The notes: generated by a model from the letters alone, not told the origin. A DNA stretch of 58,377 nucleotides from a virus (IMGVR_UViG_3300022723_000109:1-58377), one strand, 5' to 3'. Counted from the stretch's first letter, positions 3,241 through 58,377 are shown. Made by a program: numbers and translations.

Positions 3241-3784
3241 CGCTTGCTTCTCCGGATTCTGGAGGGGCCGTCCCCTCGGTCTTCGTTACGCCTTCGGCGG
3301 CCTGCAGGAAGGCGCGGATCTCCGCGGCCTTCTCGGCGGCCGTCGCGTCGGCTTGCTGCTCCGACTCCTGGCCGTAGCGGTCCTTCATCCTGGTCTTCAG
3401 GAGGAAGATCGTCAACGTCTCCGGGAACGTGGTGAGGTACACCGTCCTCCCGCGCTCGTCCTTCACGATCTTCCCGTTGTGGACGAAGGGCCGCACGACC
3501 CCGTCGATGCAGCGGTTCACGGCCGAGGCTTCGAGCAGCTCGTCCGTCTGGAGCTCGATCTCGTCCCACTCCTCGGCGAAGGCCGGGTCGCTCTTCCGCC
3601 GGTCGTACACCGTGGTCCGCCCCTTGTGGACGACCTTGCAGGCCGTCGTGACGCACCGGTGCCGGCGGAACGCCGCGAGCCAGAGCGGAGCCCAATCGAC
3701 GCGCGGCTTGCGCGGGGGTCTCTTTTTGGCGCGTCCGGATTGTGCGCCGCCGCGCGCGCCCGCCTTGCTCGCCTTCTTCGCCAT
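3227..3784 (-). CDS. Terminase small subunit-like HTH protein
   Basis: CVTTACKVVHKGRTTVYDRRKSDPAFAEEWDE...NRCIDGV...LTIFLLKTR matches the pattern of a common TerS family. Confidence 0.7.
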   Translation of the reverse strand: MAKKASKAGARGGAQSGRAKKRPPRKPRVDWAPLWLAAFRRHRCVTTACKVVHKGRTTVYDRRKSDPAFAEEWDEIELQTDELLEASAVNRCIDGVVRPFVHNGKIVKDERGRTVYLTTFPETLTIFLLKTRMKDRYGQESEQQADATAAEKAAEIRAFLQAAEGVTKTEGTAPPESGEASDGES

Positions 3785-3801
3785 CGCGCCCGACACGGTA
3801 C

Positions 3802-4044
3802 CTAATCTGCATCGACATCGAAGAAGACGGTCTCGCCGCAATGCCCGCAGACGCGCGAGTCGCTGTAGAGCTCGGTCGGATCTGGCGGTACGCCGTACTC
3901 CAGAACGGTCCCGCAGGTCGCGCAGCTCTTCGTCGCCACGCCGTTGATCCTGCGCCAGTCGAAGAAGCGGATCGGCTTGCCGCAGTAGGGGCACGGTGCC
4001 GAGTTCCTCGGACGGAAGCTCTTCGAGGACCGGGCGCCACTCAC
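3802..4044 (-). CDS. Zinc-ribbon protein
   Basis: CPYC, CATC, CGHC. Confidence 0.55.
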   Translation of the reverse strand: MSGARSSKSFRPRNSAPCPYCGKPIRFFDWRRINGVATKSCATCGTVLEYGVPPDPTELYSDSRVCGHCGETVFFDVDAD

Positions 4045-4235
4045 GGAAGCGGAGGCGCGAGGTCTTCGTCTTCGAGGTGAGGGGGCGGCGCCTCTCGCTC
4101 CACCGGAGCCGGGCGCGGGGCGCTGCGCTCCCCGCGCCCTCGCAGCCTGCACTCGCACGTCGTCGGCTGCTCGTTCTCCAGGCGCGAGCACACGAGCCCG
4201 GTCCCTCGGCACTTCGGGCAGTCGGTCGAGGTCAA
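4041..4235 (-). CDS. Small Cys-rich protein
   Basis: CPKCRGTG...CEC; TTGA overlap. Confidence 0.5.
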   Translation of the reverse strand: MTSTDCPKCRGTGLVCSRLENEQPTTCECRLRGRGERSAPRPAPVEREAPPPHLEDEDLAPPLP

Positions 4236-4633
4236 GAGCTTGTCTCCGGCAAGAGCTTCGGGACGTCGCCCGGCGCGAGGGCTTCGAGCTGGGGACGGAC
4301 CTCTTCGTAGACGACGCGGCCCGTGGGCAGGAGCAGGTCCGCGAAGAACGTGCGGTCGAAGGACGCGAGCCCTTCCTCGACGGCCGTGAGCTTCGCCTTC
4401 GTGACGAGAACCAGGACGCGCCAGAGGCGACAGATCTCGCGCTCGTCGCCGTCGTCCGGGTAGGGGACGAAGACCCGGCACGCCCGGCCCTCGACGCGGA
4501 ACATGATCGCGGCGCGCGGGGGGCTGCTCTCCTCCGCCCAGCCGAACGCCTCAGCGCCGAAGCGGGTGACGAGCTTGCGGAGCTCGGCGACGCTCCGGTC
4601 GACGGGGACCTTCGTGTTCGCTGCGTACGGCAT
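4232..4633 (-). CDS. Conserved phage protein of unknown function
   Basis: YAANTKVPVDRS...WRVLVLVTKAKLTAVEEG pattern recalled from many phages. Confidence 0.7.
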   Translation of the reverse strand: MPYAANTKVPVDRSVAELRKLVTRFGAEAFGWAEESSPPRAAIMFRVEGRACRVFVPYPDDGDEREICRLWRVLVLVTKAKLTAVEEGLASFDRTFFADLLLPTGRVVYEEVRPQLEALAPGDVPKLLPETSS

Positions 4634-4917
4634 CAGCACTCTCCCTCGACGGTGCCGAGCCACTCGATGAGTTCGTCGGCGGACGGCGGCCCCTCGATCG
4701 GCTGCTTCTGATTCCGGCGGTAGGCCGAGTACGCGGCCGAGGCGATGCCGTGCGCGCGCATCTCGTCGTCGGCCGGCGGCCGGTTGATCGCCTTGACGAT
4801 GGCTCGGGCCGTGCGCTCCTCGCTGCTATCGAACTCGATCACGGTGTCGCCGGCTGCGTCGACGACGGCGACCTCGAACGAGCTCACGACCTTCCACGGG
4901 AGCGGGTGCACGCTCAC
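4633..4917 (-). CDS. Hypothetical protein
   Basis: HPLPWKV N-terminus; coupled ORF. Confidence 0.6.
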   Translation of the reverse strand: MSVHPLPWKVVSSFEVAVVDAAGDTVIEFDSSEERTARAIVKAINRPPADDEMRAHGIASAAYSAYRRNQKQPIEGPPSADELIEWLGTVEGEC

Positions 4918-5135
4918 GGGAGAGCCTCGCCCGCCGCCTGGAGCGGAGCCTTCAAGCGCTGGAGCGTCATGATCCGCTCGGCGAGCGCGCGCATCTTCCC
5001 GTCGAGCTCGCCGCGCCGCTCGCGGAGCTCCTCGTGCTCGGCGTTGAGCATCTCGATCGCCGCGTCGAGCCGTTGATGCAGCTCGGGCAGCGCGTCGACG
5101 TCGGTCCATCCGATCGGCTTCTTCTCTGCGTTCAT
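4914..5135 (-). CDS. Coiled-coil hypothetical protein
   Basis: Heptad pattern; ATGA overlap. Confidence 0.6.
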   Translation of the reverse strand: MNAEKKPIGWTDVDALPELHQRLDAAIEMLNAEHEELRERRGELDGKMRALAERIMTLQRLKAPLQAAGEALP

Positions 5136-7671: not shown

Positions 7672-7929
7672 GTGCAGCTCGCACTCGACACTCTCATCCT
7701 CGTCGCCCTGATCTTCATCTCCTCGGTCGGGCTCGCGATCTTCGGAACGCTCCGCCTGCTCAAGCAGAAGCTCGACCAGGTCATCGACCCGCTCATCGAA
7801 GCGCGCAAGGCTCGAGCCTCCGAGCTCGCGGCCGCGCTGAAGAAGACCGGCGCTCAGCTTCACGATCTCGCGCGACGTGCACGAGAGGAGCAGGAGCGCA
7901 AGAACCGCGAAGACGCTCGGAGGAACTGA
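7672..7929 (+). CDS. Membrane-anchored coiled-coil protein
   Basis: AGGAGGT ribosome binding site; N-terminal hydrophobic helix. Confidence 0.7.
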   Translation: MQLALDTLILVALIFISSVGLAIFGTLRLLKQKLDQVIDPLIEARKARASELAAALKKTGAQLHDLARRAREEQERKNREDARRN

Positions 7930-8249
7930 TGCGCTCGCTCGCCACACTCTGCACCCTCGCCCTTCTCACCTTCGTCGCGTGGATCGTCGGCGTCTCGCTC
8001 GGGGTGCTCCACGACGACACGGCGTCGCGCATCGCGCGAGCGCTACTCTTCCCGCTCGACGATCCGATCAACGACTCGCCGCAGAACCGCGACGCGATCC
8101 TTGCCACGGCCGGCGCGTGCTGGGGGATCCTCGTCGTCGCGACCCTGGTCGGCGCGGTCGGCTGCGCGAAGCTCTGGCTCGCCGCACGCGACCGCCAGGT
8201 CAACGACGGGAGCGAGACGATCCCCGGCCTGCACGGGTGGAAGCGGTGA
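7929..8249 (+). CDS. Membrane protein with two TM helices
   Basis: Two hydrophobic segments; TGATG overlap. Confidence 0.65.
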   Translation: MRSLATLCTLALLTFVAWIVGVSLGVLHDDTASRIARALLFPLDDPINDSPQNRDAILATAGACWGILVVATLVGAVGCAKLWLAARDRQVNDGSETIPGLHGWKR

Positions 8250-9875: not shown

Positions 9876-11363
9876 ATGGAAGTCCTTCCGAAAGAGGGCG
9901 GAGCCCTCGCAGAGACCGGTCGCAACGTGACCGGAGACGCCGGCGCGATCGCCGAGCAAGGCGCGCAGCACACGTCGGCCCTCGCGGCTGAGCGCTACCG
10001 AATCGAGGGCATGATCATCGCGGCCGAGCGGAGGCCGCGTGACGAAGAGCGCGCGCGCGACCGCGTGCTCAAGAGCTGCAAGCGCCCGAGGTTCGCCGAG
10101 GGCGCGACGTACGAGTTCCCGCGCGGCGGCTCCGTCGTGACCGGGCCTTCGGTGAACCTCGCCCGCGAGATGGCGCGCGCGTGGGGAAACATCATGACCG
10201 GGTACCGGATCGTCGACATGGACGACGTCTGGATCACGATCGAGGGGTTCGCGTACGACGTCGAGACGAACACCGTGCTCGCCGAGCAATCCCGCTTCAA
10301 GCGCATGGTGCAGCGGAAGCCGAAGGACGCGCGCGGCCGCACGATCAAGGGCGCGCCGGCGACGTGGGTCCGCATCGACGACGAGCGCGACCTCATGGAG
10401 CTCGTCGGCCGCAACGCGGCGAAGCGGCAACGGAACTGCATCTTGAACCTCATGCCCTTCGACATCCGCGAAGAGGCGTTGGAGATCTGCTACAACACCG
10501 CGCTCCAGCTCGCCGACCGCGAGCTCAAGGGCAAGAAGATCGAGGAAGTGATCGAGGATCTCCTCGAAGCGTTCGAGCACTACGGCGTCGAGCGCGACGC
10601 GATCGAGGCGTTCCTGAAGCGCCCGATGGAGGAGATGACCGACGGCGACCTCGTGAAGCTGCGCGGCGTCTACCGCTCGATCAAGGCGGGCGAGGGGAAG
10701 GTCGACGAGTTCTTCGACGTGAAGCCCGCCGAGCCGGCGAAGGCGGGAGTCCGGCCGGAGCAGGTCCATCCCGAAGGCGGCTCGAGCCCGGCCGACGCGA
10801 AGAAGGAAGACGCCGCCGGCGCCCCCGAGGCGGACGGCAAGGACGACGCGCGCAGGATGCCGACGTCGCGCCAGCTCACGAAGCTCCGGAAGGTCGTGCG
10901 CGAGCACGGCACGAAGGAGGCGTTCATCGACTGGCTCGCGGCCGAGTTCGAGATCGAGGTCGACGACGGCACGCTCAACTCCGCATGCGAGGCGATCAAG
11001 GGCAAGCTCGGCGAGGACGACGTCGAGGTCATGATCGCCCGGATCGAGCAGGGCGGCGAGCTGAAGCAGGAAGAGGACGCCGGCGGCGAGGACGAGGTCC
11101 CTACGAGTGGGGGCTCTGCCGAGGAGTCCCCTGCCTCGTCGACGCCCGAACGCACGAGATCCTCCAGCTCTGACGGACCGACCGACGAGCAGATCCGGCG
11201 CATCGTGCAGATGCTCGACGCGCACGAGGTCAAGCGGAAGGATCTCGACGAGCTGCTCGCGAAGCTCTTCCAGGTCGAGAACGAGCGCGAGCTCACCGTC
11301 GAACGGGCGGCCGAGCTGATCACCGGCATCGAGTCCGGCGATATCTGGAGCGCCCTCGACTGA
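9876..11363 (+). CDS. Putative single-strand annealing/recombination protein with long acidic C-terminus
   Basis: YEFPRGG...GPSVNLAREMARAWGNI family motif; adjacent to exonuclease; AGGAG ribosome binding site. Confidence 0.65.
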   Translation: MEVLPKEGGALAETGRNVTGDAGAIAEQGAQHTSALAAERYRIEGMIIAAERRPRDEERARDRVLKSCKRPRFAEGATYEFPRGGSVVTGPSVNLAREMARAWGNIMTGYRIVDMDDVWITIEGFAYDVETNTVLAEQSRFKRMVQRKPKDARGRTIKGAPATWVRIDDERDLMELVGRNAAKRQRNCILNLMPFDIREEALEICYNTALQLADRELKGKKIEEVIEDLLEAFEHYGVERDAIEAFLKRPMEEMTDGDLVKLRGVYRSIKAGEGKVDEFFDVKPAEPAKAGVRPEQVHPEGGSSPADAKKEDAAGAPEADGKDDARRMPTSRQLTKLRKVVREHGTKEAFIDWLAAEFEIEVDDGTLNSACEAIKGKLGEDDVEVMIARIEQGGELKQEEDAGGEDEVPTSGGSAEESPASSTPERTRSSSSDGPTDEQIRRIVQMLDAHEVKRKDLDELLAKLFQVENERELTVERAAELITGIESGDIWSALD

Positions 11364-15962: not shown

Positions 15963-16190
15963 ATGAAGATCACCGACGCACACGACCTCAAGAAAGCCGC
16001 GATCGTTTGGGAGACCGGAGACCTGCAGAGCATCGAGCAGCTCCGACGTGACGAGCAGGTGCGCGCGAAGTTCAAGCGCACCTTCACGCACGCTTACGCC
16101 GAGACGCCGCGTCGCGAGAAGCCCGTGAGCGAGATGACCTTCGAGGAGTTCGCCGCAAGCCGTCGACGTCAGAAAGGAGTCACGCTCTGA
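15963..16190 (+). CDS. Hypothetical protein
   Basis: GGGAG ribosome binding site; coupled to the next gene. Confidence 0.6.
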   Translation: MKITDAHDLKKAAIVWETGDLQSIEQLRRDEQVRAKFKRTFTHAYAETPRREKPVSEMTFEEFAASRRRQKGVTL

Positions 16191-16477
16191 TGCTCACCTT
16201 CCTCCAGTTCGGGCCGCCGGGGGTCCTCTTCCGTTCCCGGAACGTGTTCGCCGTACTCTCAGCGGTCGTCGCCTTCACGGTGGCGGCCGTTTTTCTTTCG
16301 CCGATCCTCGCGATCGCCATTCCCGACGAGCCGTCGATCGGGATCGACGCCGCCCTCGTCCGCGACCTGATCTTCTGGATCTCGATCGCGATGACGTGGG
16401 CCGCGCTGATCTCGGCGCGCGACCTCTTCATGCCCGCCTCGACTGCGGACGTGAGGGGGTGCGCCGATGTCCGCTGA
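16190..16477 (+). CDS. Membrane protein with two TM helices
   Basis: Hydrophobic segments; TGATG overlap. Confidence 0.6.
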   Translation: MLTFLQFGPPGVLFRSRNVFAVLSAVVAFTVAAVFLSPILAIAIPDEPSIGIDAALVRDLIFWISIAMTWAALISARDLFMPASTADVRGCADVR

Positions 16478-32579: not shown

Positions 32580-32908
32580 CAGGTCTGCGAGGGCGGAGTT
32601 GTCGATCGCAGCGTCGAGAGGTTCGAGTTGAGCAGCGCCAGGGCCGCGATCGCGCCGGCGTGCGGGGGATCGTCGATCTCTGGGTAGTGGAGCCAGTCGT
32701 CGAGCCAGACGATCTCCCACCCGAGGGGGAAGTGCGCCGTATAGACGACGTGATTCTCCGTCCCGGTGACGCCCATGTAGTGCAGCGCCCACGACTTGTT
32801 TACGCAAAGGCGCTGCGCGAGCAGGACGCCGTCCTCTCCGAGCGCGACCGCGACGTGCTCGGCGAATCCGAAGATGCCGATCATCGTGCAGTAGATCTTG
32901 CTCGTCAT
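32579..32908 (-). CDS. Hypothetical protein within the neck operon
   Basis: Coupled at both ends. Confidence 0.6.
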   Translation of the reverse strand: MTSKIYCTMIGIFGFAEHVAVALGEDGVLLAQRLCVNKSWALHYMGVTGTENHVVYTAHFPLGWEIVWLDDWLHYPEIDDPPHAGAIAALALLNSNLSTLRSTTPPSQT

Positions 32909-35900
32909 CTTCGAGAGACCTCCACTTCCCAAAGGACCACCTTCCCGCCGGCGTAGAGTGGACCGACGAACGTCGTCCTCCACTTCGACCCCTCCGTCCC
33001 GAGGCGCACTTCCTGCCCCTCGTACGGGTTCGGGAAGGGAAGCTCCTTGCTCGGGACGTAGAAGATCTGCCGACCGGTCTTCACGAGTTCCCCATCGCTC
33101 AATCGACGGACGAACTCCTGCGGAGGAGTTCCCTTGATGCAATGCTCGCACCTTCCTTTGCGGGAGACGGTTCCCGCTCCTGCGTTGACGATCTCGAACT
33201 CGTACGTCACGAAGACGTACGCCTTGCCGAGCTCGTCGATCAGCTCCTTCGAGTCGTTGAAGAAGTCCGCGTCGAGCTCGGTGACGATCGCGGACGACGT
33301 CGGGAGGCCGCCGCCGCGAAGGTGCAGGACGTAGAGCGCGATCGCCCCGCCCGCATAGAGCGCCTCGATCCTCACGACCGACCAGGTCGTGCCGTCGTAC
33401 TCGACGACGTCGGCCTTGCTCGGCACGAAGCCGAGCTCGAGCCCGGGGACGAAGAGCTGCACGTCGCCACGCTTGACGAGTTCTCCGTCGACGAGGCTCC
33501 TCTTGAAAGCAAGAGGCGGCGACGTCTGCACGGCCGGGTAGAGCGTGGCGTTGTTCGTGATCGCGACCGTGCGCCCGAGCTCGTCGATGATCTCCTTCGC
33601 CGCCGTGAGCAGCTCGGAGTCGAGCGTCGTGACGATCGCCGTAGCCGAAGGAACCCCCCCGCCCCGAAGGTGGATCGCGTAGAGGGCGACCAGGTCGCCC
33701 GAGTAGATCTCATCGAACCGAACGACCCGCCAGGTCGTGCCGTCGAAGGAGACCGTCTCGGCGAGCTCGGGGGTGAGGGGAGCGTCCTGCGCCGCGAGGA
33801 AGACGACGACGTCGCCGCGCTGGACGAGCTCGCCGTCGACGTAGCGGTCGGAGAAGTTGAACGCGGGGGAGATCTGCACGTCGGAGAACGGGGTCCCCCC
33901 GACGTCGAAGTCGGCCGTCCTGCCGAACTCCTGGATCAGGTCGAGCGCCGCCTGCCGCAGGTCGACATCGAGCTCGGTCGGGATGCCGATGCAGTCGGTG
34001 AGCTTGGAGGCGATGACCTGGCCGGTCGCCTGGCCGAAGGCGGCCGCCTGGACGTCCTGCATCCCCGCGATCACCATCGCGACCGCGGTCGAAGTGGCCG
34101 AGCCGGCGGCCGCTCCGTCGACGCAGCGCTCCCGACACGGGTCGCCGCCGCTCGACGTCGCCACCCCGGACGCGATGGCGGGCCCCGTCGGGATGTCCCC
34201 GGAGACGACCACCGACCCGACCGAGTCCCCTGCCGCGGAGCCCTGGACGGCTCGCAGGCGGCACGGCTGAGCCACCGTCCCGACGGCCAGGCCGGCGGCC
34301 GAGCCGTCCACTCCGCGCAGCCTGGCGGCGCTGGCGGCTGCCGTCGCGGCTCCGGCGTCGCTCGCCGCGGCCGAGACCGCGAGGGCCCCGATCGCCGCAG
34401 CGGTCGCGAGGCCGTTCGAGAGGGCCGCCACGGGCCGCAGGCGGCACGCCGCCGGCACCGTGCCCGTCGATGCCCCCGCGGCTGAGGCCGCCGCAGAGCG
34501 GCGCCTGCACGGCGTCACGGCCTCGAACGAGGAGCCGGCCGCCGAGCCGTCGACCGCGCGGGCGCGCTGAGCCGTCGCCGCCGAGCTCGCGGAGCCGGCG
34601 TCGGTCGCGCTCACCGACCGGAGGACGGTGCCCGAGGCGGTCGCCGTCGAGCTCCCCGAGGCAGACGCGGAGACGGCCCGGATCCTGGTCGGCGTGACCG
34701 GGGGGAGTGAGGTCGCCCCGGCGGCTGAGCCGTCGACGGGGCGGAGCCTGGTCGGCGCGGCCGAGCTCGTCGCCGCCCCCTCGGCCAGCGTGGGGCCGCT
34801 CGGCCGACGCCTCGTCGGCGTGACCGGGATGAAGGGACCGCCCGGAGTGCCCGAGACGCTCGCGGAGCGGAGGCGGTTCGGCGGCACGTCGATCGCGCTG
34901 CCCGCCCCGGCGTCGCTGGCCTGCGCTCGCTGGAAGACGCCGAGCGAGACGGCGAAGGTGAGGATCCGCGCGGCGACCGCGGTGTCGAGCCAGTCGAGCG
35001 AGAGGCCGGCCTGCAGCGCGGCGTCGACCTCCGCGTTCATGTCGTCGGTCGTGTCGCCTTGGCTCCGAGCGATGTTGACGAGCTGGTCCCCCTCGAAGCG
35101 GTTGTGCGTGTTCGTCGGGTTCGCCGCGTCCTCGCCGCCGTGATAGATGCTCGCCTCGACGCCCGACTCCGAGACCCACACTCCATGCCCGAGGACGCCG
35201 ACCTGCGCGCCGCTCGTGACGCCGAAGTCCCACGAGCCCGTCACGATCCGTTCGAGGAGCATGAAGACGAAGCGGGGGTTGAAGCCGATGTCCTCGTGAT
35301 CCTCGACGCCGTCGCTCGTGGGCGCGGTGATCTCTCCGAGGAAGACGTCCTCGGAGTCGAAGTCCATCGCGCAGTAGGCGACCGGCCAGCCGGCGAACCC
35401 TCCGCGGTTGATCGTGAAGGTGCCTTCGCCAACGCTCCCGATCGTCTGCAGCCCGCCGATCAGATCAGCGCCGAAGGAGTCGACGCCGAGGCGCGCCGAA
35501 TCCATGCGCGTAATCGCCCGCGAGTTGACCGACGCCCCGAGATCGTCGTACTCGTAGTTCCGCGACCGGTGCCTCGCGCCGGCGGCGTGATCGTTCGCCC
35601 AAAAGCCGAAGCGAGAGATGACGCTGAGGTTGAGCCCTCCGGTGACGTTCGATCGACCGTGGGCTCGAGCGAGGATTGCCTTCGGCGTACGGTCCGCCAT
35701 CGTGCCCGCGAGCGAGATCGTGTCGCTCGCCGACGTCGTGTCGCCGAAGCCGCACTCCATCGCGACATCCTCGCCACCGAAGAGCACGAGGACCCACTTG
35801 ATCGCGAGCGTCGGTGCGACGAGCCACTCGATGACGATGCCGTCGTCCGTCCAGGAGTCGAAGCGGAAGGCTTGCTCGACCGCCCCGCTGACCGGGTTGT

Positions 35901-36192
35901 AGATGACGCCGAGGCGATCGTTCCATCCGACCGACGCCGCGCTTGGCGACGAGTCGGCGTCGGTCATGACGTCCTGAAAGCACCACTCGTTCCCGTCGGC
36001 GTCGACGGCCCCGAACGAGTCCGACCCGCTCGAAATGATCGTGCCGTCGAAGATCGTCCGGACGCCGAAGATCCACGCGCCGGCGATGTCCGCCTCGTCG
36101 ACCGCGCCGGCGACGGTGATCGTCTGCGTCTCGCCGACGCCCTTCGCGGTATCGGAGGTCCAGACGACGGCGTCGATGAAGGTGTCGCCCAC
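32905..36192 (-). CDS. Large virion protein: globular N-terminus, Ala/Ser/Gly repeat stalk, three tandem head-closure-like domains
   Basis: Three copies of A..LI.E.GR...VDGELV.RGD...W.VV....Y.G....LY...LR at the C-terminus. Confidence 0.7.
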   Translation of the reverse strand: MGDTFIDAVVWTSDTAKGVGETQTITVAGAVDEADIAGAWIFGVRTIFDGTIISSGSDSFGAVDADGNEWCFQDVMTDADSSPSAASVGWNDRLGVIYNPVSGAVEQAFRFDSWTDDGIVIEWLVAPTLAIKWVLVLFGGEDVAMECGFGDTTSASDTISLAGTMADRTPKAILARAHGRSNVTGGLNLSVISRFGFWANDHAAGARHRSRNYEYDDLGASVNSRAITRMDSARLGVDSFGADLIGGLQTIGSVGEGTFTINRGGFAGWPVAYCAMDFDSEDVFLGEITAPTSDGVEDHEDIGFNPRFVFMLLERIVTGSWDFGVTSGAQVGVLGHGVWVSESGVEASIYHGGEDAANPTNTHNRFEGDQLVNIARSQGDTTDDMNAEVDAALQAGLSLDWLDTAVAARILTFAVSLGVFQRAQASDAGAGSAIDVPPNRLRSASVSGTPGGPFIPVTPTRRRPSGPTLAEGAATSSAAPTRLRPVDGSAAGATSLPPVTPTRIRAVSASASGSSTATASGTVLRSVSATDAGSASSAATAQRARAVDGSAAGSSFEAVTPCRRRSAAASAAGASTGTVPAACRLRPVAALSNGLATAAAIGALAVSAAASDAGAATAAASAARLRGVDGSAAGLAVGTVAQPCRLRAVQGSAAGDSVGSVVVSGDIPTGPAIASGVATSSGGDPCRERCVDGAAAGSATSTAVAMVIAGMQDVQAAAFGQATGQVIASKLTDCIGIPTELDVDLRQAALDLIQEFGRTADFDVGGTPFSDVQISPAFNFSDRYVDGELVQRGDVVVFLAAQDAPLTPELAETVSFDGTTWRVVRFDEIYSGDLVALYAIHLRGGGVPSATAIVTTLDSELLTAAKEIIDELGRTVAITNNATLYPAVQTSPPLAFKRSLVDGELVKRGDVQLFVPGLELGFVPSKADVVEYDGTTWSVVRIEALYAGGAIALYVLHLRGGGLPTSSAIVTELDADFFNDSKELIDELGKAYVFVTYEFEIVNAGAGTVSRKGRCEHCIKGTPPQEFVRRLSDGELVKTGRQIFYVPSKELPFPNPYEGQEVRLGTEGSKWRTTFVGPLYAGGKVVLWEVEVSRR

Positions 36193-36676: not shown

Positions 36677-37195
36677 CTAGGCCCGCTCGGCGACGATCCC
36701 GCCGCTTTCCAGGAAGTCGGCGACCATCGCGTCGATCTCGCTGTAGCGCTTGACCTGCGAGGCGCCGAAATACTCGGTCTCGGTTTCCAGGGGACCGACC
36801 TTCTTCTTGACGCGACGGATCGCCCCGACGGGCGCCGCGATGTCGGGAAGGAGCTCGGCGGACAATGCCTTCGACGAGAGGAGAGCGTGCGCGTCGCGCC
36901 ACTTCTGCGGGACCTCCGACGAGGAGAGGCAGAAGCGGTCGCGTCGCACGCCGATCCTCGGCCATTCGAGGGCTTGATCGACGATTCGAATCTCGCCCTG
37001 CAGGCGCGGGCCGTACACGGCATCCATGTACCGCGCCGCGACCCGGCACGCGATCTCCGCATCCGAGAGCGCGGCTCCGGTCCATGCGGTCGCGGCCGTC
37101 GCATCGTGCTCGTCGAGGTACGCCTGCACGTCCGCGACTTCGTTGTACGTGTCGGCCGTTGAGAGGCCGGACCCGTCTTCGATCGTGAGCGTCAT
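36677..37195 (-). CDS. Head-tail adaptor (annotated DnaT-like family)
   Basis: LTIEDGSGL..AD.Y, QALEWPR, KKVGPLE.EY. Confidence 0.8.
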   Translation of the reverse strand: MTLTIEDGSGLSTADTYNEVADVQAYLDEHDATAATAWTGAALSDAEIACRVAARYMDAVYGPRLQGEIRIVDQALEWPRIGVRRDRFCLSSSEVPQKWRDAHALLSSKALSAELLPDIAAPVGAIRRVKKKVGPLETETEYFGASQVKRYSEIDAMVADFLESGGIVAERA

Positions 37196-37359
37196 GACGT
37201 CGCGTAGTCCCGGAGAGCGATCCAGCCGGTGCCCGAGATTAAGATCTCGTACTGCCCGGCGGTGACGTTGAAGATGATGCGCCGGTCGACCGTGGTCGGC
37301 AGCGCGTCACGCTGCGCCTCGGTGATCCGAGGCTCGTGCACCCAATCCTCGACCGACAT
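37192..37359 (-). CDS. Small structural protein with fibre-like motif
   Basis: TEAQRDAL...IIFN.T; ATGA overlap. Confidence 0.5.
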   Translation of the reverse strand: MSVEDWVHEPRITEAQRDALPTTVDRRIIFNVTAGQYEILISGTGWIALRDYATS

Positions 37360-37408
37360 CCGGGTCGCCAGCGTTTGACGACCCGGACGCCGGACAGGAC
37401 GAGCGGCG

Positions 37409-37816
37409 CTAGGACGAAGGCGAAGCGCCACCGGCAGCGGCCCTTGCGTTGGCGAGGATGACGTTCGCTTCCTCGTTCGCCTTGGCGACGATGCGCGCGG
37501 CCTCGGCCTTCGCCTCTTCGAGGACCACCTTCGCGCCACCGTCTCCGGAGCCGGCGAGGAACTTCTCGCGCTCGGCCTTCGCGTGAGCCGCGGAGCGCTT
37601 CGACTGCGCGATGCAGTCGGCGAGCGACGCCTGCGCGATGCCGGTGTCGTTGAGCGGCTTGCCCGCCGCTCCGCTCTCGCCGGCCTTGGGCGCGACGCCC
37701 GGCTCGGTGGGGTCCTTCGGCTTGTCGGCCGGAGGCTGAGCGGTCGATCCGCCCGCCGCCGGCGCGCCGTCCGTCTTCTCGGGCGGCTTCGCGCCCGGCT
37801 TCGTCTGCTCGGTCAT
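37409..37816 (-). CDS. Hypothetical low-complexity protein after the capsid gene
   Basis: Typical codon usage. Confidence 0.6.
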   Translation of the reverse strand: MTEQTKPGAKPPEKTDGAPAAGGSTAQPPADKPKDPTEPGVAPKAGESGAAGKPLNDTGIAQASLADCIAQSKRSAAHAKAEREKFLAGSGDGGAKVVLEEAKAEAARIVAKANEEANVILANARAAAGGASPSS

Positions 37817-41081: not shown

Positions 41082-42680
41082 CTACGCCGCTTCGGTGCCG
41101 CCGTCCTGCGGGTTCTGATCTCCGGGGAGCTCGGTGTCCGGCTCGCCCGGCCGCTCGGGATCGTCCTCGGGATCGTCCTCGTCCGTCTCGACCTCGACCC
41201 GCGGCGGCAGGATGTCGCGCTCCTGCATCGCCTGCTCGATGACCTCTTCGATGTCGACGTCCTCGCTGAAGAGGCCGCGCCGCTTGAGTTCGTTGAGGAG
41301 CAGCACCTTCGGGATCTCCGGCGCGCCGGTCGCGTCCGGCTCGCGCAGCTTGAGCAGGATCTCAGCGTCGTCCTTGGCGCGGCTGCCAAGCGGGAAGTCC
41401 TTGAAGACGACGACCTTGAAGGCTTCTTCGAGCTCGGTCCGGACCCACTTCGCGGCGAGCTCGAAGCACTTGCGGAGGCCGGTCTCGAAGTTCTCGACCC
41501 ACGAGATGATCGTCGCCTGCGTCTTCGCTTCGTTGATCCCCTTGCCGGTCGCGGTCTCGCTTCCGGTCCGACGGACGAGGGGCTCGAGCCCGAGTCGCTC
41601 CATGCGCTCTTCGAGCGCCTTGAGGTCTTCGGCGCCGGCGCCGATCGCCTGCCCCGTGTGCTCGACGACCGAGAGCTTCGCGTCCGGGTTCTTGGCAGCG
41701 AAGAGCCGGTTGCCGCCGACGGTGAAGCCCTGCTTCAGGTCTTCCTCGGTGAGACCCGCGCCGAAGTAGACGCCTACGCGCGCGAACCGGAGAAGGTTGC
41801 GTTGATCGGAGTCGCTCTGCCAATGCGTGAGGTTGAGCCAGGCGAGATCCATGAACGGCGGGCGGCCCGTCATGAAGCCGGTGCGGTCCGCGTACCACGT
41901 GCAGAGCGGGATCTCGCCGAAGGGGTGCGTCTGCGTGTCGAAGAGCTCCCACTTCCCGCGGCCGATCGTGCCTCGCGGCGAGTCGGTGCGCTGCCAGAGC
42001 TCCCACCGATCGGGGAGCCAGCGCTTCACGACCGGCTCGTTCCGCTGGCCGAACTGCCCGCGCTTGACGAGGCGGTGATCCATGATGCGCACTTCGAGGA
42101 GCTTCTCGCTTCCGTCGACCTCCTGCTCCGACTCCCAAAAGAAGAGCTGCGGCGCGCGGATCTCGGCGAAGTACGGGTGAGCTCGCGCGGCAGCTACGGG
42201 GTCGCGCGTCGGGCCCTGCGTGACGCGGGGGAAGTCGACGATCGTGTGCGCGAGGCCGTGCGTGACTCCGTTGCGGAACCAGTCGCGCGCGTACTGCGTG
42301 AGGTTCCTGCCGGCCATGTCGGCGTTGACCATGATGCCGGCGAGCCGGTCGATGAGGGTCCCCTCGGTCTTCACCATCTTCGCGAACGGCTTCGCGACGA
42401 CGTCGTCGATGGCCTTCTCCAGAGCGCCGAAGAGGACCGACCGAGCGACGCGCACGCTGTACGCCTTGTCGCTCTCCTTCTCTTCCTGCGGGAGCCAGCG
42501 GTGTGCCTTGCGCCGCATCCTGCGGGTGCCGCCGAGGAGATCCTCGATCAGCTCCCAATCGAGACGCATCTCGTCGTAGTCCGGCGAGGTCGTCGCGATG
42601 TCGTCCTCTTCCTGGACGTGCAGGCTCAGCTCTTGGGGGAGGAAGTGGAACTTGCCATTGACGGACGCGAATGAGGACAT
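41082..42680 (-). CDS. Portal protein (DUF4055-like)
   Basis: DLLGGT..MR...LP...E....Y..R, VDFP, PPF.DLA.LN..HWQS.SD, ETAT. Confidence 0.9.
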   Translation of the reverse strand: MSSFASVNGKFHFLPQELSLHVQEEDDIATTSPDYDEMRLDWELIEDLLGGTRRMRRKAHRWLPQEEKESDKAYSVRVARSVLFGALEKAIDDVVAKPFAKMVKTEGTLIDRLAGIMVNADMAGRNLTQYARDWFRNGVTHGLAHTIVDFPRVTQGPTRDPVAAARAHPYFAEIRAPQLFFWESEQEVDGSEKLLEVRIMDHRLVKRGQFGQRNEPVVKRWLPDRWELWQRTDSPRGTIGRGKWELFDTQTHPFGEIPLCTWYADRTGFMTGRPPFMDLAWLNLTHWQSDSDQRNLLRFARVGVYFGAGLTEEDLKQGFTVGGNRLFAAKNPDAKLSVVEHTGQAIGAGAEDLKALEERMERLGLEPLVRRTGSETATGKGINEAKTQATIISWVENFETGLRKCFELAAKWVRTELEEAFKVVVFKDFPLGSRAKDDAEILLKLREPDATGAPEIPKVLLLNELKRRGLFSEDVDIEEVIEQAMQERDILPPRVEVETDEDDPEDDPERPGEPDTELPGDQNPQDGGTEAA

Positions 42681-42921: not shown

Positions 42922-43329
42922 TCAGATCCCGACGATGATCTTCGCGCGGAAGCGCACCGTCACGAGTACGGCGTACCAGGAGACGACGGCGGTGAGTGCG
43001 TGCCACCACGCGAAGACCGGGTACGCCGGCCAGACGAAGGAGACCACGCCTTCGAGATGCCCGATCCCGCAGACGGCGATGAAGAAGGCGTACGCGGTCC
43101 GGACCGTTGCCTTCTCGTCGCTGGAGAGCTGATCCTGCTTCGGTCGGGTCCGCTCTGCAAGGACCGCGCCGAGCAGGATGACAGGAATCGCAACGTACGC
43201 CGCGGAGATCGCGAGGTGCGACCAGAGATAGAGCTGCTCCAGGAGAAGCGTCCAGGGCCCACACTCTCCACGAGTGAGCCACTCCCCGGCGTGGTCGCAC
43301 GACCCTACATGATGCGCGTCCTGCAGCAT
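42922..43329 (-). CDS. Stand-alone ethylene-receptor-type (ETR1-like) transmembrane domain
   Basis: SHLAISAAYVAIP, FIAVCGIGH, LTAVVS match ETR1 SD..IA.AYFSIP, FIVLCGATH, LTAVVS. Confidence 0.8.
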   Translation of the reverse strand: MLQDAHHVGSCDHAGEWLTRGECGPWTLLLEQLYLWSHLAISAAYVAIPVILLGAVLAERTRPKQDQLSSDEKATVRTAYAFFIAVCGIGHLEGVVSFVWPAYPVFAWWHALTAVVSWYAVLVTVRFRAKIIVGI

Positions 43330-43417
43330 GGTCCCGCCGGAACCTCGCCGCCAACGAAGAGGCCCCCGCGCACGAGAGGTATCGAAGCGCGGGGGCCGAT
43401 GCAAGCGCCGGCCGAGC

Positions 43418-43891
43418 TCAGCCCACCGGCGCGGTGACGGGTGGGACCGGCGACCCCCTGGCTGCGGCGACCGCCCTCGGGTCGGTCGTCACGAGCTCCC
43501 CGCGCGCCTGCCGCTGCTTGTTCCTCACGTGCTGCGTGAGTCCGAAGCCGCCGATCACGCTGCCGAGGGCCGTGAGTCCGAGGTCGATCATGGGATTCCC
43601 GGTGATCGGTGAGCCCGCCGCGCCCGCGACGATCTGCTGCACCCTGCCGGAGATCTCGTCGACCTTCCCGTTGATCGAGTCGTAGACCTGCCCGTTCGCG
43701 GCCGTGATCCGGTCGCGCAGCTCGGTCTCCGAGATGACGCCGGCTTCCAGGTCGTCGAGGGCCTCGTCGATCTTCGCGTCCCTGGCCTCGAAGGAGGCCC
43801 GCATGTCGAGAAGGTCGCCCTTCGTCGCGACGCATGAGGAGAAGCCCCCCATCGCCGCCACGAGCACGACCCATCCGAGGATCTGCTTCAT
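43418..43891 (-). CDS. Lipoprotein with C-terminal TM helix, unimolecular-spanin-like topology
   Basis: Signal peptide with lipobox FSSC, coiled coil, MIDLGLTALGSVIGGFGL. Confidence 0.55.
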   Translation of the reverse strand: MKQILGWVVLVAAMGGFSSCVATKGDLLDMRASFEARDAKIDEALDDLEAGVISETELRDRITAANGQVYDSINGKVDEISGRVQQIVAGAAGSPITGNPMIDLGLTALGSVIGGFGLTQHVRNKQRQARGELVTTDPRAVAAARGSPVPPVTAPVG

Positions 43892-45064: not shown

Positions 45065-46417
45065 TTAGACCTCTTGCACCACGACGCGCGGATCGCCGTC
45101 GACCGGGTGCGCGAGGTAGACGTAGTACCCTAGACCATCGGTAAGGTGGGTCCAGAGCTTGTCGCGCTTGTCGAGCTCGCCGCCGGTGCCCTCCAGGACG
45201 ATCACGCTCTCCAGGTCGTCGCAGAGGTTCGGGCACGCCTCCGGGCAGACGAGCAGGCGGATCGTCCCGTCGGCGGAGAGGAGCCGCGAGTTCACGGCGT
45301 TCACGCGGGTCCGCTCCGCGGGGTTCGAGCGCTCGTAGTCGAAGAAGACGCGGCCGCCGAACTTCGCGCGGAGGATCTTCTTGATCAGGTCCCAATCGGA
45401 CCCCTCGGTCTGAGCCGTGCCGCGCGCGCCGCCCGTCGCGTCGCCGTAGCACCGGACCTCGCCGGCGTGGTGGCCCCACAACTGCACGAGCCGCTCGGTC
45501 ACGCGCGGGGTCGTCGAGTCGTGCGGGATGTAGACCTCGCCGATGCAGGCGGTGATCCGTGCGGCGACGCGCGGGTCGACACCCTGGTAGAGCTGCTCCT
45601 GGCACACGACGGCGACGCCAGGGTCGACGTTGAAGTCGAAGCAGAAGATGAGCGGCTTCTGCGGGTCGTACCGGAGGATCTCGCGGGCCTGCGTCTCGCG
45701 GTCGAAGCCGTAGTACGCCTGGCCCTTGATGTTCTTGAAGCTCGCCTCCCATTCGATCGCCCACGTCAGCGGGTCGGTCGTCGCCTTCGCGCTCTCGATC
45801 TCGTCGGCGGGGAGGACGCTCGCGCTCGTCCAATGGAAGTAGGCGTGATCCGCGACCTTCGGGTTCTTCGCGTGATTGACGAGATCCTTGTAGTGCTTGC
45901 CTCCGCGCGGCACGCCGTAGACCCACGCACGACCAGGTCGCCCCATCGTTCCGAGCGCGGGGCGCACGTGCTTCGGCCAGACGTGCGGCTTCATGTCGCC
46001 GAACTCGTCGACGAAGGCCCAATCGAGAGGACGACCCTCGGCTCGAGCCGGCTTGTCCATCCCGAGCACTTCCCAGGTCGTCCCGTTGACGCCGAGGATC
46101 TGCAGCTTCGACTCGCGGATCTTGCGGATGAAGCGCTCGGGGATCAGCGCCTTCAGGTCGTCCCAATAGATGTCGTGGGCCTGGTCGCGCGTCGGCGCCA
46201 TGAACGAGACGCGGTAGTCCGGCCATCGGTCGTTCGAGAGACCGACGACGACGCCCTTGCGCTTCGCGAGCATCGTCTTCCCGGAGCGGCGTCCGCACGG
46301 CGCGACGTTGATCCGGATCTCCGAGCTCCAGAGACGTTGCTGCTCGTCGTGGTGATCGACCGGCGTCCACGCCGGAGTCAGCGCACCGGGCTCGGCTGGA
46401 GCTGCCGCCGGCGTCAT
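45065..46417 (-). CDS. terL: Terminase large subunit
   Basis: Walker A CGRRSGKT, APT..QA, Walker B VDE, nuclease DFNVDP, GDATG, H.TDG.GY. Confidence 0.95.
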   Translation of the reverse strand: MTPAAAPAEPGALTPAWTPVDHHDEQQRLWSSEIRINVAPCGRRSGKTMLAKRKGVVVGLSNDRWPDYRVSFMAPTRDQAHDIYWDDLKALIPERFIRKIRESKLQILGVNGTTWEVLGMDKPARAEGRPLDWAFVDEFGDMKPHVWPKHVRPALGTMGRPGRAWVYGVPRGGKHYKDLVNHAKNPKVADHAYFHWTSASVLPADEIESAKATTDPLTWAIEWEASFKNIKGQAYYGFDRETQAREILRYDPQKPLIFCFDFNVDPGVAVVCQEQLYQGVDPRVAARITACIGEVYIPHDSTTPRVTERLVQLWGHHAGEVRCYGDATGGARGTAQTEGSDWDLIKKILRAKFGGRVFFDYERSNPAERTRVNAVNSRLLSADGTIRLLVCPEACPNLCDDLESVIVLEGTGGELDKRDKLWTHLTDGLGYYVYLAHPVDGDPRVVVQEV

Positions 46418-58230: not shown

Positions 58231-58377
58231 GCGGGTGCTGGAGAGCCTGCTCCCAGCCCGGACGGGGCTCGGCGAGCCGGTTCGCTTCGAGGAACCGCTG
58301 CACGAGCTCGGCCGCGGGCGCGGAGTCGTGGCCGGCCCCGAACGTCACCGACTCGGCGCGCGTCGTGAGCCAGGACA
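58231..58377. repeat. Terminal direct repeat / circular overlap, copy 2
   Basis: Matches 1-147 with one mismatch. Confidence 0.97.

Follow-up and report, generated by a model that had tools for sequence, protein, structure and literature searches.

A phage-encoded, stand-alone ETR1_N domain protein with a conserved membrane partner and a tentative link to lysis

ETR1-type receptors, among them Arabidopsis ETR1, carry a three-helix membrane domain, ETR1_N, in which Cys65 and His69 are the copper ligands. Ethylene binding is described for bacterial proteins that carry the domain in the accessible portions of two papers (PMC10266040; PMC11819568). The accessible text of the former gives Asp25 as needed for copper and ethylene binding; of 1,221 domains, 93.55% have Asp and 3.67% have Asn at this site. 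With Ala, Asn or Gln in place of Asp25, ETR1 shows no detectable ethylene binding in yeast, and normal binding and signalling also require Lys91, which is coupled to Asp25 (PMC10266040). An Asp25Asn receptor with 100-fold lower affinity is described in the part of PMC11971883 that is available. Here we report on a gene for such a domain in a virus genome of 58,377 bases (IMGVR_UViG_3300022723_000109:1-58377; the window hereafter means this whole stretch). As judged by sequence comparison, its product, termed P0001, belongs to the ETR1_N family as a stand-alone and divergent protein. What appears to be new is the combination: a known domain standing alone, borne by a phage, with an altered pair of key residues and a seemingly dedicated partner protein. 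We found no paper on a phage-encoded ethylene-binding domain in the open-access literature; the accessible part of PMC6324907 mentions viral histidine kinases of brown-alga viruses and, in that part, no ethylene-binding domain. Some clusters of related sequences are already labelled automatically as ETR1_N-containing in the ESM Atlas, so that the sequences are on record, unstudied.

The original prediction, which was made from the sequence alone, had described a 135-aa protein with three transmembrane segments and ethylene-receptor motifs. These motifs are present in the translation, namely SHLAISAAYVAIP (residues 37-49), FIAVCGIGH (83-91) and HALTAVVS (110-117), and hydropathy gives three segments at residues 39-57, 81-99 and 105-123. 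The homology that it had proposed was confirmed as well. P0001 scores 48.5 bits (E 1.1e-12) on the Pfam family ETR1_N (PF25487), which has its cut-off at 27 bits, its residues 32-130 aligning to profile positions 4-93 of 97, and a six-frame search of the whole record returned the same single match (48.2 bits). Alignment by hhalign of a profile of 60 short relatives with 10 long sensor N-termini gave a probability of 99.84% (E 3.4e-30, 123 columns). We conclude from these comparisons that the ETR1_N likeness of P0001 is real and far beyond chance. A search of PDB sequences with P0001 returned no meaningful match, and there was no solved structure of an ethylene-sensing domain among the PDB sequences related to it. 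The gene was read from an ATG codon, a longer version from a TTG at 43404 being possible. Successive loops carry 1, 5, 0 and 3 Lys plus Arg residues, which fits the predicted topology with the N-terminus outside and the C-terminus inside. The protein ends, with the tail RFRAKIIVGI, only 12 residues after helix 3 and therefore has no output domain.

P0001 has the same order of three helices as the ETR1-type receptors, for which we compared Arabidopsis ETR1 and the kinases on loci L014, L020, L022, L028, L030, L032, L037 and L040. Both have in common the Cys-x-x-x-His of helix 2, the Tyr and Ile-Pro of helix 1, a Pro-x-Tyr outer loop, the Thr-Ala-x-x-Ser of helix 3 and an N-terminal Cys-Gly-x-Trp, which in P0001 is part of a conserved motif R20-x-x-C23-G-x-W26; Cys11 is also present. 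The equivalents of the copper ligands are Cys87 and His91 in helix 2. Unlike the receptors, P0001 has His at the equivalents of Asp25 (His38, where its family mostly has Asn) and Lys91 (His110) in the alignment to long sensors, and a cytoplasmic loop that is longer by about 10 residues. It also lacks the PAS, GAF, kinase and receiver outputs, has a separate single-pass partner and is encoded by a phage. Alignment and translation thus agree with the earlier description of the kept Cys and His, the two His replacements and the missing output domain. Because both sites are His, receptor-like ethylene affinity is improbable for P0001, whereas metal binding is probable.

P0001 belongs to a large family of short proteins. 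A phmmer search against 1.84 billion representatives gave 451 matches at E<=1e-3, and 136 of 151 sequences (P0001 and the best 150 of the 451 matches) are at most 200 aa long. These sequences, together with 48 open reading frames (ORFs) of fetched loci, formed an alignment of 199 sequences in which we tallied residues for short forms (n=153) and long forms (>350 aa, n=27). The equivalent of Cys65 is Cys in 147 short and all 27 long forms, and that of His69 is His in 149 short and again all 27 long forms. By contrast, the Asp25 equivalent is Asn in 78, His in 24, Gln in 17 and Asp in just 7 short forms, as opposed to Asp in 25 long forms. The Lys91 equivalent is His in 97 and Lys in 8 short forms, as opposed to Lys in 17 and Arg in 5 long forms. 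The contrast at these two sites is sharp despite a biased sample, all sequences having been retrieved through their likeness to P0001. The Cys23 equivalent is near-invariant in the same alignment (140/153 short and 24/27 long forms).

All ten long relatives that were scanned carry output domains. Eight have the order ETR1_N-(PAS/GAF)-HisKA-HATPase_c, seven of them with a receiver, and their ETR1_N domains score 102-131 bits; the other two, cyanobacterial proteins on L002 and L003, are ETR1_N-GGDEF-EAL proteins with ETR1_N scores of 39-48 bits. That the domain is normally fused to an output in bacteria, as had been stated, holds in the cyanobacteria sampled: 46 of 151 genomes contained an ETR1_N match, and 114 of the 119 matches lay in open frames of at least 389 aa. 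Canonical cyanobacterial domains score 101-157 bits, against 48.5 for P0001. A GTDB genome scan with a family profile returned four cyanobacterial loci only, three with long proteins and one with a 207-aa frame. The cyanobacterial proteins on L002, L003 and L005 are like P0001 in their low ETR1_N score and in the Trp-His of helix 3; in helix 1, Asn is found in L003 and L005 and Asp in L002. They differ from P0001 in their length of 630-647 aa, their chromosomal location and the absence of the N-terminal R-x-x-C-G-x-W segment, and those on L002 and L003 also in their cyclic-di-GMP output domains. The domain variant without the Asp/Lys pair occurs in cyanobacterial chromosomes too and so extends beyond phages. 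These three chromosomal proteins may be cellular kin of the phage forms.

In a quick maximum-likelihood tree (185 rows, 107 columns, weakly resolved), P0001 falls into a clade of 90 rows (SH-aLRT 84) comprising 87 short, 3 mid-length and no long sequences, while all 22 long rows lie in another clade. The label "short" requires 14 changes on this tree, as compared with 35.7 in shuffles, and none of 500 shuffles was as low. The residue signature of the short forms and this clade without long forms rule out a decaying fragment of a host kinase for P0001, a possibility that the original prediction had raised against itself. Ten close relatives that were looked up are metagenomic sequences in clusters of 1-3 members. 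ETR1_N was assigned in 18 of the 30 nearest ESM Atlas clusters, and the commonest phylum of the top three (96, 113 and 62 members) is Uroviricota.

The gene following that of P0001 had been called holin-like. It is better described, from the comparisons below, as encoding a conserved, single-pass coiled-coil partner of the ETR1_N protein: it has a homologue in five of the eight closest metagenome loci, two of which (L009 and L010) are near-copies. In L006, L008, L009, L010 and L011, the homologue was found directly downstream of the ETR1_N gene by tblastn and jackhmmer, and apart from the ETR1_N protein itself, it is the only one of the compared window proteins with matches in the fetched loci. 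The partner gene starts 10 nt past the ETR1_N stop in the window, behind GAGG, whereas in L008, L009, L010 and L006 the two genes share bases at the ETR1_N stop codon and the partner ATG, and in L011 a gap of 2 nt separates them, so that most of the pairs are translationally coupled; gene calls in these loci were based on ORFs and codon-position G+C, and their start codons are uncertain. The protein is predicted to have a short N-terminus outside, one helix and a charged helical tail of 49 aa in the cytoplasm. Its best-conserved stretch consists of the helix and the following YFL(R/K)YLE(R/H)V. A profile search gave 93 relatives of 63-129 aa, none of which has a name. Two of them come from contigs equal in length to contigs with close ETR1_N relatives, a hint that these contigs may be the same. 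Family matches were weak only (DUF948 and phrog_2908), and a comparison with 50,697 GenBank phage records gave a best match of E 0.4. Where no partner homologue was found, other coiled-coil arrangements occur: in L007, L013, L027, L052 and L053, the gene of an analogous single-pass/coiled-coil protein abuts the ETR1_N gene, and in L034 and L039, a coiled coil is fused to the C-terminus of ETR1_N in place of a separate gene. The two fused proteins (L034:8013-8567 and L039:83-637) are low-G+C relatives with a C-terminal coiled coil of about 70 aa. We infer that the ETR1_N protein and its partner form a two-protein membrane unit.

Genomic contexts of relatives could be read on about 10 independent contigs, and every readable context of a short form was phage-like. 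The ETR1_N gene in L007 is followed 1.2 kb downstream by a T7-type large terminase (phrog_38, E 1.7e-94), that in L010 is accompanied by RusA and phrog_1084, that in L008 lies just downstream of the C-terminus of a large polyvalent protein, and that in L017 has a dCMP-deaminase-like gene in its context. Other small membrane-protein genes surround it in L007, L012/L013 and L017. Scans of IMG/VR with P0001 and two family profiles gave no relative, and a third profile gave two, L052 and L053. In L052, the ETR1_N gene stands between tail-fibre-like genes, which come before it, and the gene of a DNA polymerase exonuclease subunit, which comes after. In L053, the same strand carries upstream a GH46 enzyme, an unknown gene, a protein with a signal, a coiled coil and a hydrophobic C-terminus, and three small genes; the ETR1_N gene (43.4 bits) is then followed by a single-pass coiled-coil protein, a receiver-domain protein, a phage metallopeptidase and three ORFs, taken as terminase subunits and portal by size and position only. 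The position of the family accordingly varies: after tail fibres, before the terminase or between unknown genes.

The window is a whole IMG/VR record with 68% G+C, classed as linear, with a CheckV completeness estimate of 95%. Because a direct repeat of 147 nt is found at both ends (1-147 and 58231-58377, 99% identity), the genome is probably complete. It belongs to a siphovirus-type phage. On the minus strand, PHROGs recognise in turn the large terminase, the portal, a head-morphogenesis protein, a scaffold and the major capsid protein. The portal shares 33-35% identity with its counterparts in YuA-like Pseudomonas phages, in Stenotrophomonas phage Sonora and in an uncultured Manatee Spring phage. 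The P0001 and partner genes are two of four genes inserted between the terminase and portal genes (Table 1). Elsewhere in the genome, the minus-strand gene at 52516-53160 matches phrog_1158 ("tail assembly chaperone", E 2.4e-26) and sits amid early-type genes, distant from the tail module. The minus-strand gene at 32905-36192, between head and tail genes, encodes a 1,095-aa protein with a long Ala/Ser-rich middle and a 188-nt internal repeat in its C-terminal part (33227-33414 and 33575-33762, copies 71% identical).

Table 1. Features of the terminase-portal region of the window
Feature	Coordinates	Strand	Evidence
Large terminase subunit, bordering the four-gene insert	45065..46417	-	phrog_2, E 1.8e-25
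Conserved protein, 382 aa	43888..45036	-	two-homologue alignment
Lipoprotein-like protein, 157 aa	43418..43891	-	start ATG 43891, stop at 43418; hydropathy
GC-rich hairpin, 11-bp stem and U-containing tract, terminator-like, between the lipoprotein-like and ETR1_N genes	43361..43397	-	
Stand-alone ETR1_N (ethylene-binding-domain-like) protein P0001, 135 aa	42922..43329	-	Pfam, hydropathy, alignments
Partner gene, 73 aa, single predicted transmembrane helix	42690..42911	-	tblastn, jackhmmer, hydropathy
Portal protein, other flank of the four-gene insert	41082..42680	-	phrog_145, E 4.2e-93; Pfam DUF4055

The lipoprotein-like neighbour has a signal-like N-terminus ending in FSSC (MKQILGWVVLVAAMGGFSSC), an atypical lipobox. 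Its C-terminal segment MIDLGLTALGSVIGGFGLT has a mean hydropathy of 1.43 (hand calculation), under the threshold of 1.5, and is followed by RNKQRQAR. There is no Cys after Cys20, and the middle is helical and charged. This predicted architecture is like that of a unimolecular spanin (u-spanin), albeit with an atypical lipobox and a weak C-terminal anchor. In common with the u-spanin T1 gp11, the protein has no periplasmic Cys and may have a lipoprotein-type signal with Cys and a C-terminal hydrophobic anchor followed by basic residues; unlike T1 gp11, its middle looks helical rather than beta-rich, its lipobox is FSSC and its C-terminal segment is weakly hydrophobic. The available text of PMC6139136 records the unusual lipoboxes AWAC, LNGC and FVGC for u-spanins and the absence of periplasmic Cys from all 58 known ones. 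No family was found for the protein in Pfam, PHROGs, NCBIfam or PADLOC, and it is not detectably related to the spanin-like protein of L053 (E 0.014, in a coiled-coil stretch).

The 382-aa protein consists of a helical N-terminus, a Pro/Asp-rich linker and a domain of about 300 aa with many invariant residues, and it has neither a transmembrane segment nor a signal peptide. Its two homologues, the only ones, are without a name; no family was found in Pfam, PHROGs, NCBIfam or PADLOC, its profile had no match among PDB sequences, and the protein has no entry in the ESM Atlas. The cell-wall enzyme that is missing could be this protein. A terminator consensus scan gave one site in the region, at the hairpin, as compared with a mean of 2.6 in shuffles. 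The fold of 43330-43420 has a z-score of -1.52 and is equalled by 18 of 200 shuffled sequences, which makes it weak evidence for a terminator. NCBIfam gave no match for any of the four inserted genes. PADLOC had no match among 7 proteins, and a host-defence system thus found no support.

Holin/antiholin pairs are the second group of described systems to which the locus can be compared. Class I holins have three helices with the N-terminus outside and the C-terminus inside. P0001 resembles such pairs in its small size, three predicted helices of the same orientation, basic tail and second small membrane protein alongside, as well as in its position next to a spanin-like gene with packaging genes near. 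Small size, a transmembrane helix and a charged C-terminus, as expected of a holin, are predicted for both P0001 and its partner. P0001 differs from holins in that it has no sequence relation to the holin families of PHROGs (no family at E<=0.01) or Pfam and no recognisable endolysin adjacent. To our knowledge, conserved metal-ligand residues and descent from a sensor domain are not features of holins.

We tentatively favour, at a probability of roughly 40%, a metal-binding inner-membrane pair that acts at lysis as a module of the holin/antiholin type. The ETR1_N protein and its partner would form a complex in the inner membrane, with a disulfide at Cys23, the near-invariant cysteine of the N-terminus, linking the ETR1_N dimer. 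Cys87 and His91 would hold a metal, for which Cu(I) is the most likely candidate, and His38 and His110, near the metal site, would replace the Asp-Lys bridge of true ethylene receptors. The pair would act late in infection, alongside the u-spanin-like lipoprotein and the 382-aa protein, and might set or gate the permeabilisation of the inner membrane, perhaps by metal or redox state.

The link of the pair to lysis is circumstantial, and we infer it from position only: the gene of the spanin-like lipoprotein adjoins the pair, other lysis genes were not recognised in the genome, and in three phage contigs (L053, L052 and L007) the family occupies what we take to be common lysis-cassette sites, as in T7 and lambda. 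In L053, the GH46 gene lies 3.2 kb upstream of the module on the same strand, with the protein of signal, coiled coil and hydrophobic C-terminus also encoded upstream. The small membrane-protein genes around the family in L007, L012/L013 and L017 add to this circumstantial case. A PHROGs scan of 29 window proteins recognised no lysis gene, and six-frame searches of the record for Phage_lysozyme, SLT, Amidase_2, GH19 and GH46 gave no match. In Sonora, spanins, holin and endolysin lie between the capsid gene and a homologue of window 36770-37195 (tblastn E 1.3e-4). The counterpart of this slot in the window (36677-37816, as compared with L055 7865-11789) holds only one 135-aa Ala/Pro-rich gene, and none of the Sonora lysis proteins matches the window. 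The antiholin-like role in the original prediction hence keeps the argument of position and no other. As for the "lysis-like cassette" in which P0001 had been placed, the neighbours are as described, whereas the label finds no confirmation: the four genes lie between terminase and portal, and no endolysin was recognised among them.

Several observations weigh against a lysis role. No endolysin was recognised among the four inserted genes, the 382-aa neighbour being without a known family, and no lysis gene was recognised near the module in L010, L008 or L011. The terminator-like hairpin, no better than shuffles, parts the spanin-like gene from the ETR1_N/partner pair. Strongly conserved Cys and His residues within helices are unusual for holins. 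Other small membrane ORFs of the window could encode the holin (7672-7929, 7929-8249 and 16190-16477). With three family members as queries, tblastn found no homologue in the 50,697 phage records of GenBank, and no studied phage therefore informs the function. In L053, a stand-alone receiver gene (10920-11360, plus strand; Response_reg, 50.3 bits) follows the ETR1_N/coiled-coil pair, which points to signalling. Finally, the terminase-portal junction looks like a place that takes up accessory genes: YuA and Sonora have no gene there, and the Manatee Spring phage has unrelated ones. In L050 (MW202657), two different genes are found in this gap at 3632-4972, one annotated as RNA polymerase sigma factor (cnrH). 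The first two of the small membrane ORFs are adjacent early-region genes on the plus strand without a family match, possible holin or exclusion genes; the product of the first has 85 aa, a single helix and a charged coiled coil, and that of the second has 106 aa and two helices.

A more specific and decidedly unlikely version of the lysis reading makes the ETR1_N dimer itself a metal-gated pore, that is, a holin or pinholin controlled by the coiled-coil partner, and whose opening would be timed by copper or redox at the Cys/His/His/His site. A preprint describes, in its accessible part, Ca2+ currents that pass through ETR1 and ERS1, are sensitive to La3+ and disappear in the Cys4/Cys6 dimerisation mutant (10.1101/2025.10.20.683334). 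If these currents hold, a pore-like role of the stand-alone domain is conceivable; we regard this as a lead, not as evidence.

The accessory-gene character of the junction also suits another explanation, in which the pair is a membrane module ("moron") unrelated to lysis that serves superinfection exclusion, envelope protection or the handling of copper or other cations. This we consider somewhat unlikely. An insert of four genes at a site that YuA and Sonora leave unoccupied, and that carries other genes in another relative, would be expected of such a module, as would the variable genomic positions of the family. Known exclusion systems likewise combine a lipoprotein with small membrane proteins. 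The retained Cys/His site and, from the accessible part of the preprint, the dimerisation-dependent cation currents of ETR1 and ERS1 (10.1101/2025.10.20.683334) are compatible with cation handling. Yet an accessory module would leave an apparently complete genome without any recognisable lysis gene, and the neighbour resembles a spanin in a specific architecture. PADLOC also gave no match, its library covering host defence and not phage exclusion genes.

Interference with host signalling, a version of which had been proposed as a decoy of a host sensor kinase, appears unlikely to us. P0001 would form mixed dimers with a host ETR1_N hybrid kinase or mimic it, as a dominant-negative protein or decoy. 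The nearest long relatives are mostly hybrid kinases (8/10 scanned), long relatives and short forms share the R-x-x-C-G-x-W and the whole helix pattern, and ETR1 acts as a disulfide-linked dimer according to the available part of the preprint (10.1101/2025.10.20.683334). The receiver gene beside the module in L053 is one hint in this direction, yet it occurs in one of three viral records only, and no HATPase_c was found in these three (this genome, L052 and L053). Moreover, the short forms differ systematically at the Asp/Lys pair and cluster apart from the kinases, which is unexpected for a mimic tracking its host, and a simple decoy needs no dedicated conserved partner.

A genuine receptor for ethylene gas, as plant ETR1, Synechocystis Etr1 or Azospirillum AzoEtr1, is very improbable: membership of the profile, the kept equivalents of Cys65 and His69 and ethylene binding by bacterial proteins with the domain speak for it, but both of the other key residues are replaced by His, the Pfam score is far from the 102-131 bits of the kinases and the 101-157 bits of the cyanobacterial domains, and there is no output domain; with the Asp25/Lys91 data in the accessible text of PMC10266040 and our residue tally, we reject a canonical high-affinity receptor.

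The stand-alone 135-aa version and its partner offer a naturally minimal and handy object for the structure and copper chemistry of the domain. The seemingly wide spread of a sensor-type domain among phages raises the question of whether phages read a membrane cue, such as a metal, redox state or a small unsaturated molecule, or tamper with a sensor of the host. If the pore reading is true, the conductance of ETR1/ERS1 dimers described in the preprint would be tied to the lysis clock of a phage, and P0001 would be the minimal working unit of the domain. If the lysis link is true, the pair would represent a new class of lysis proteins, in a phage whose enzyme, spanin and holin escape current family libraries.

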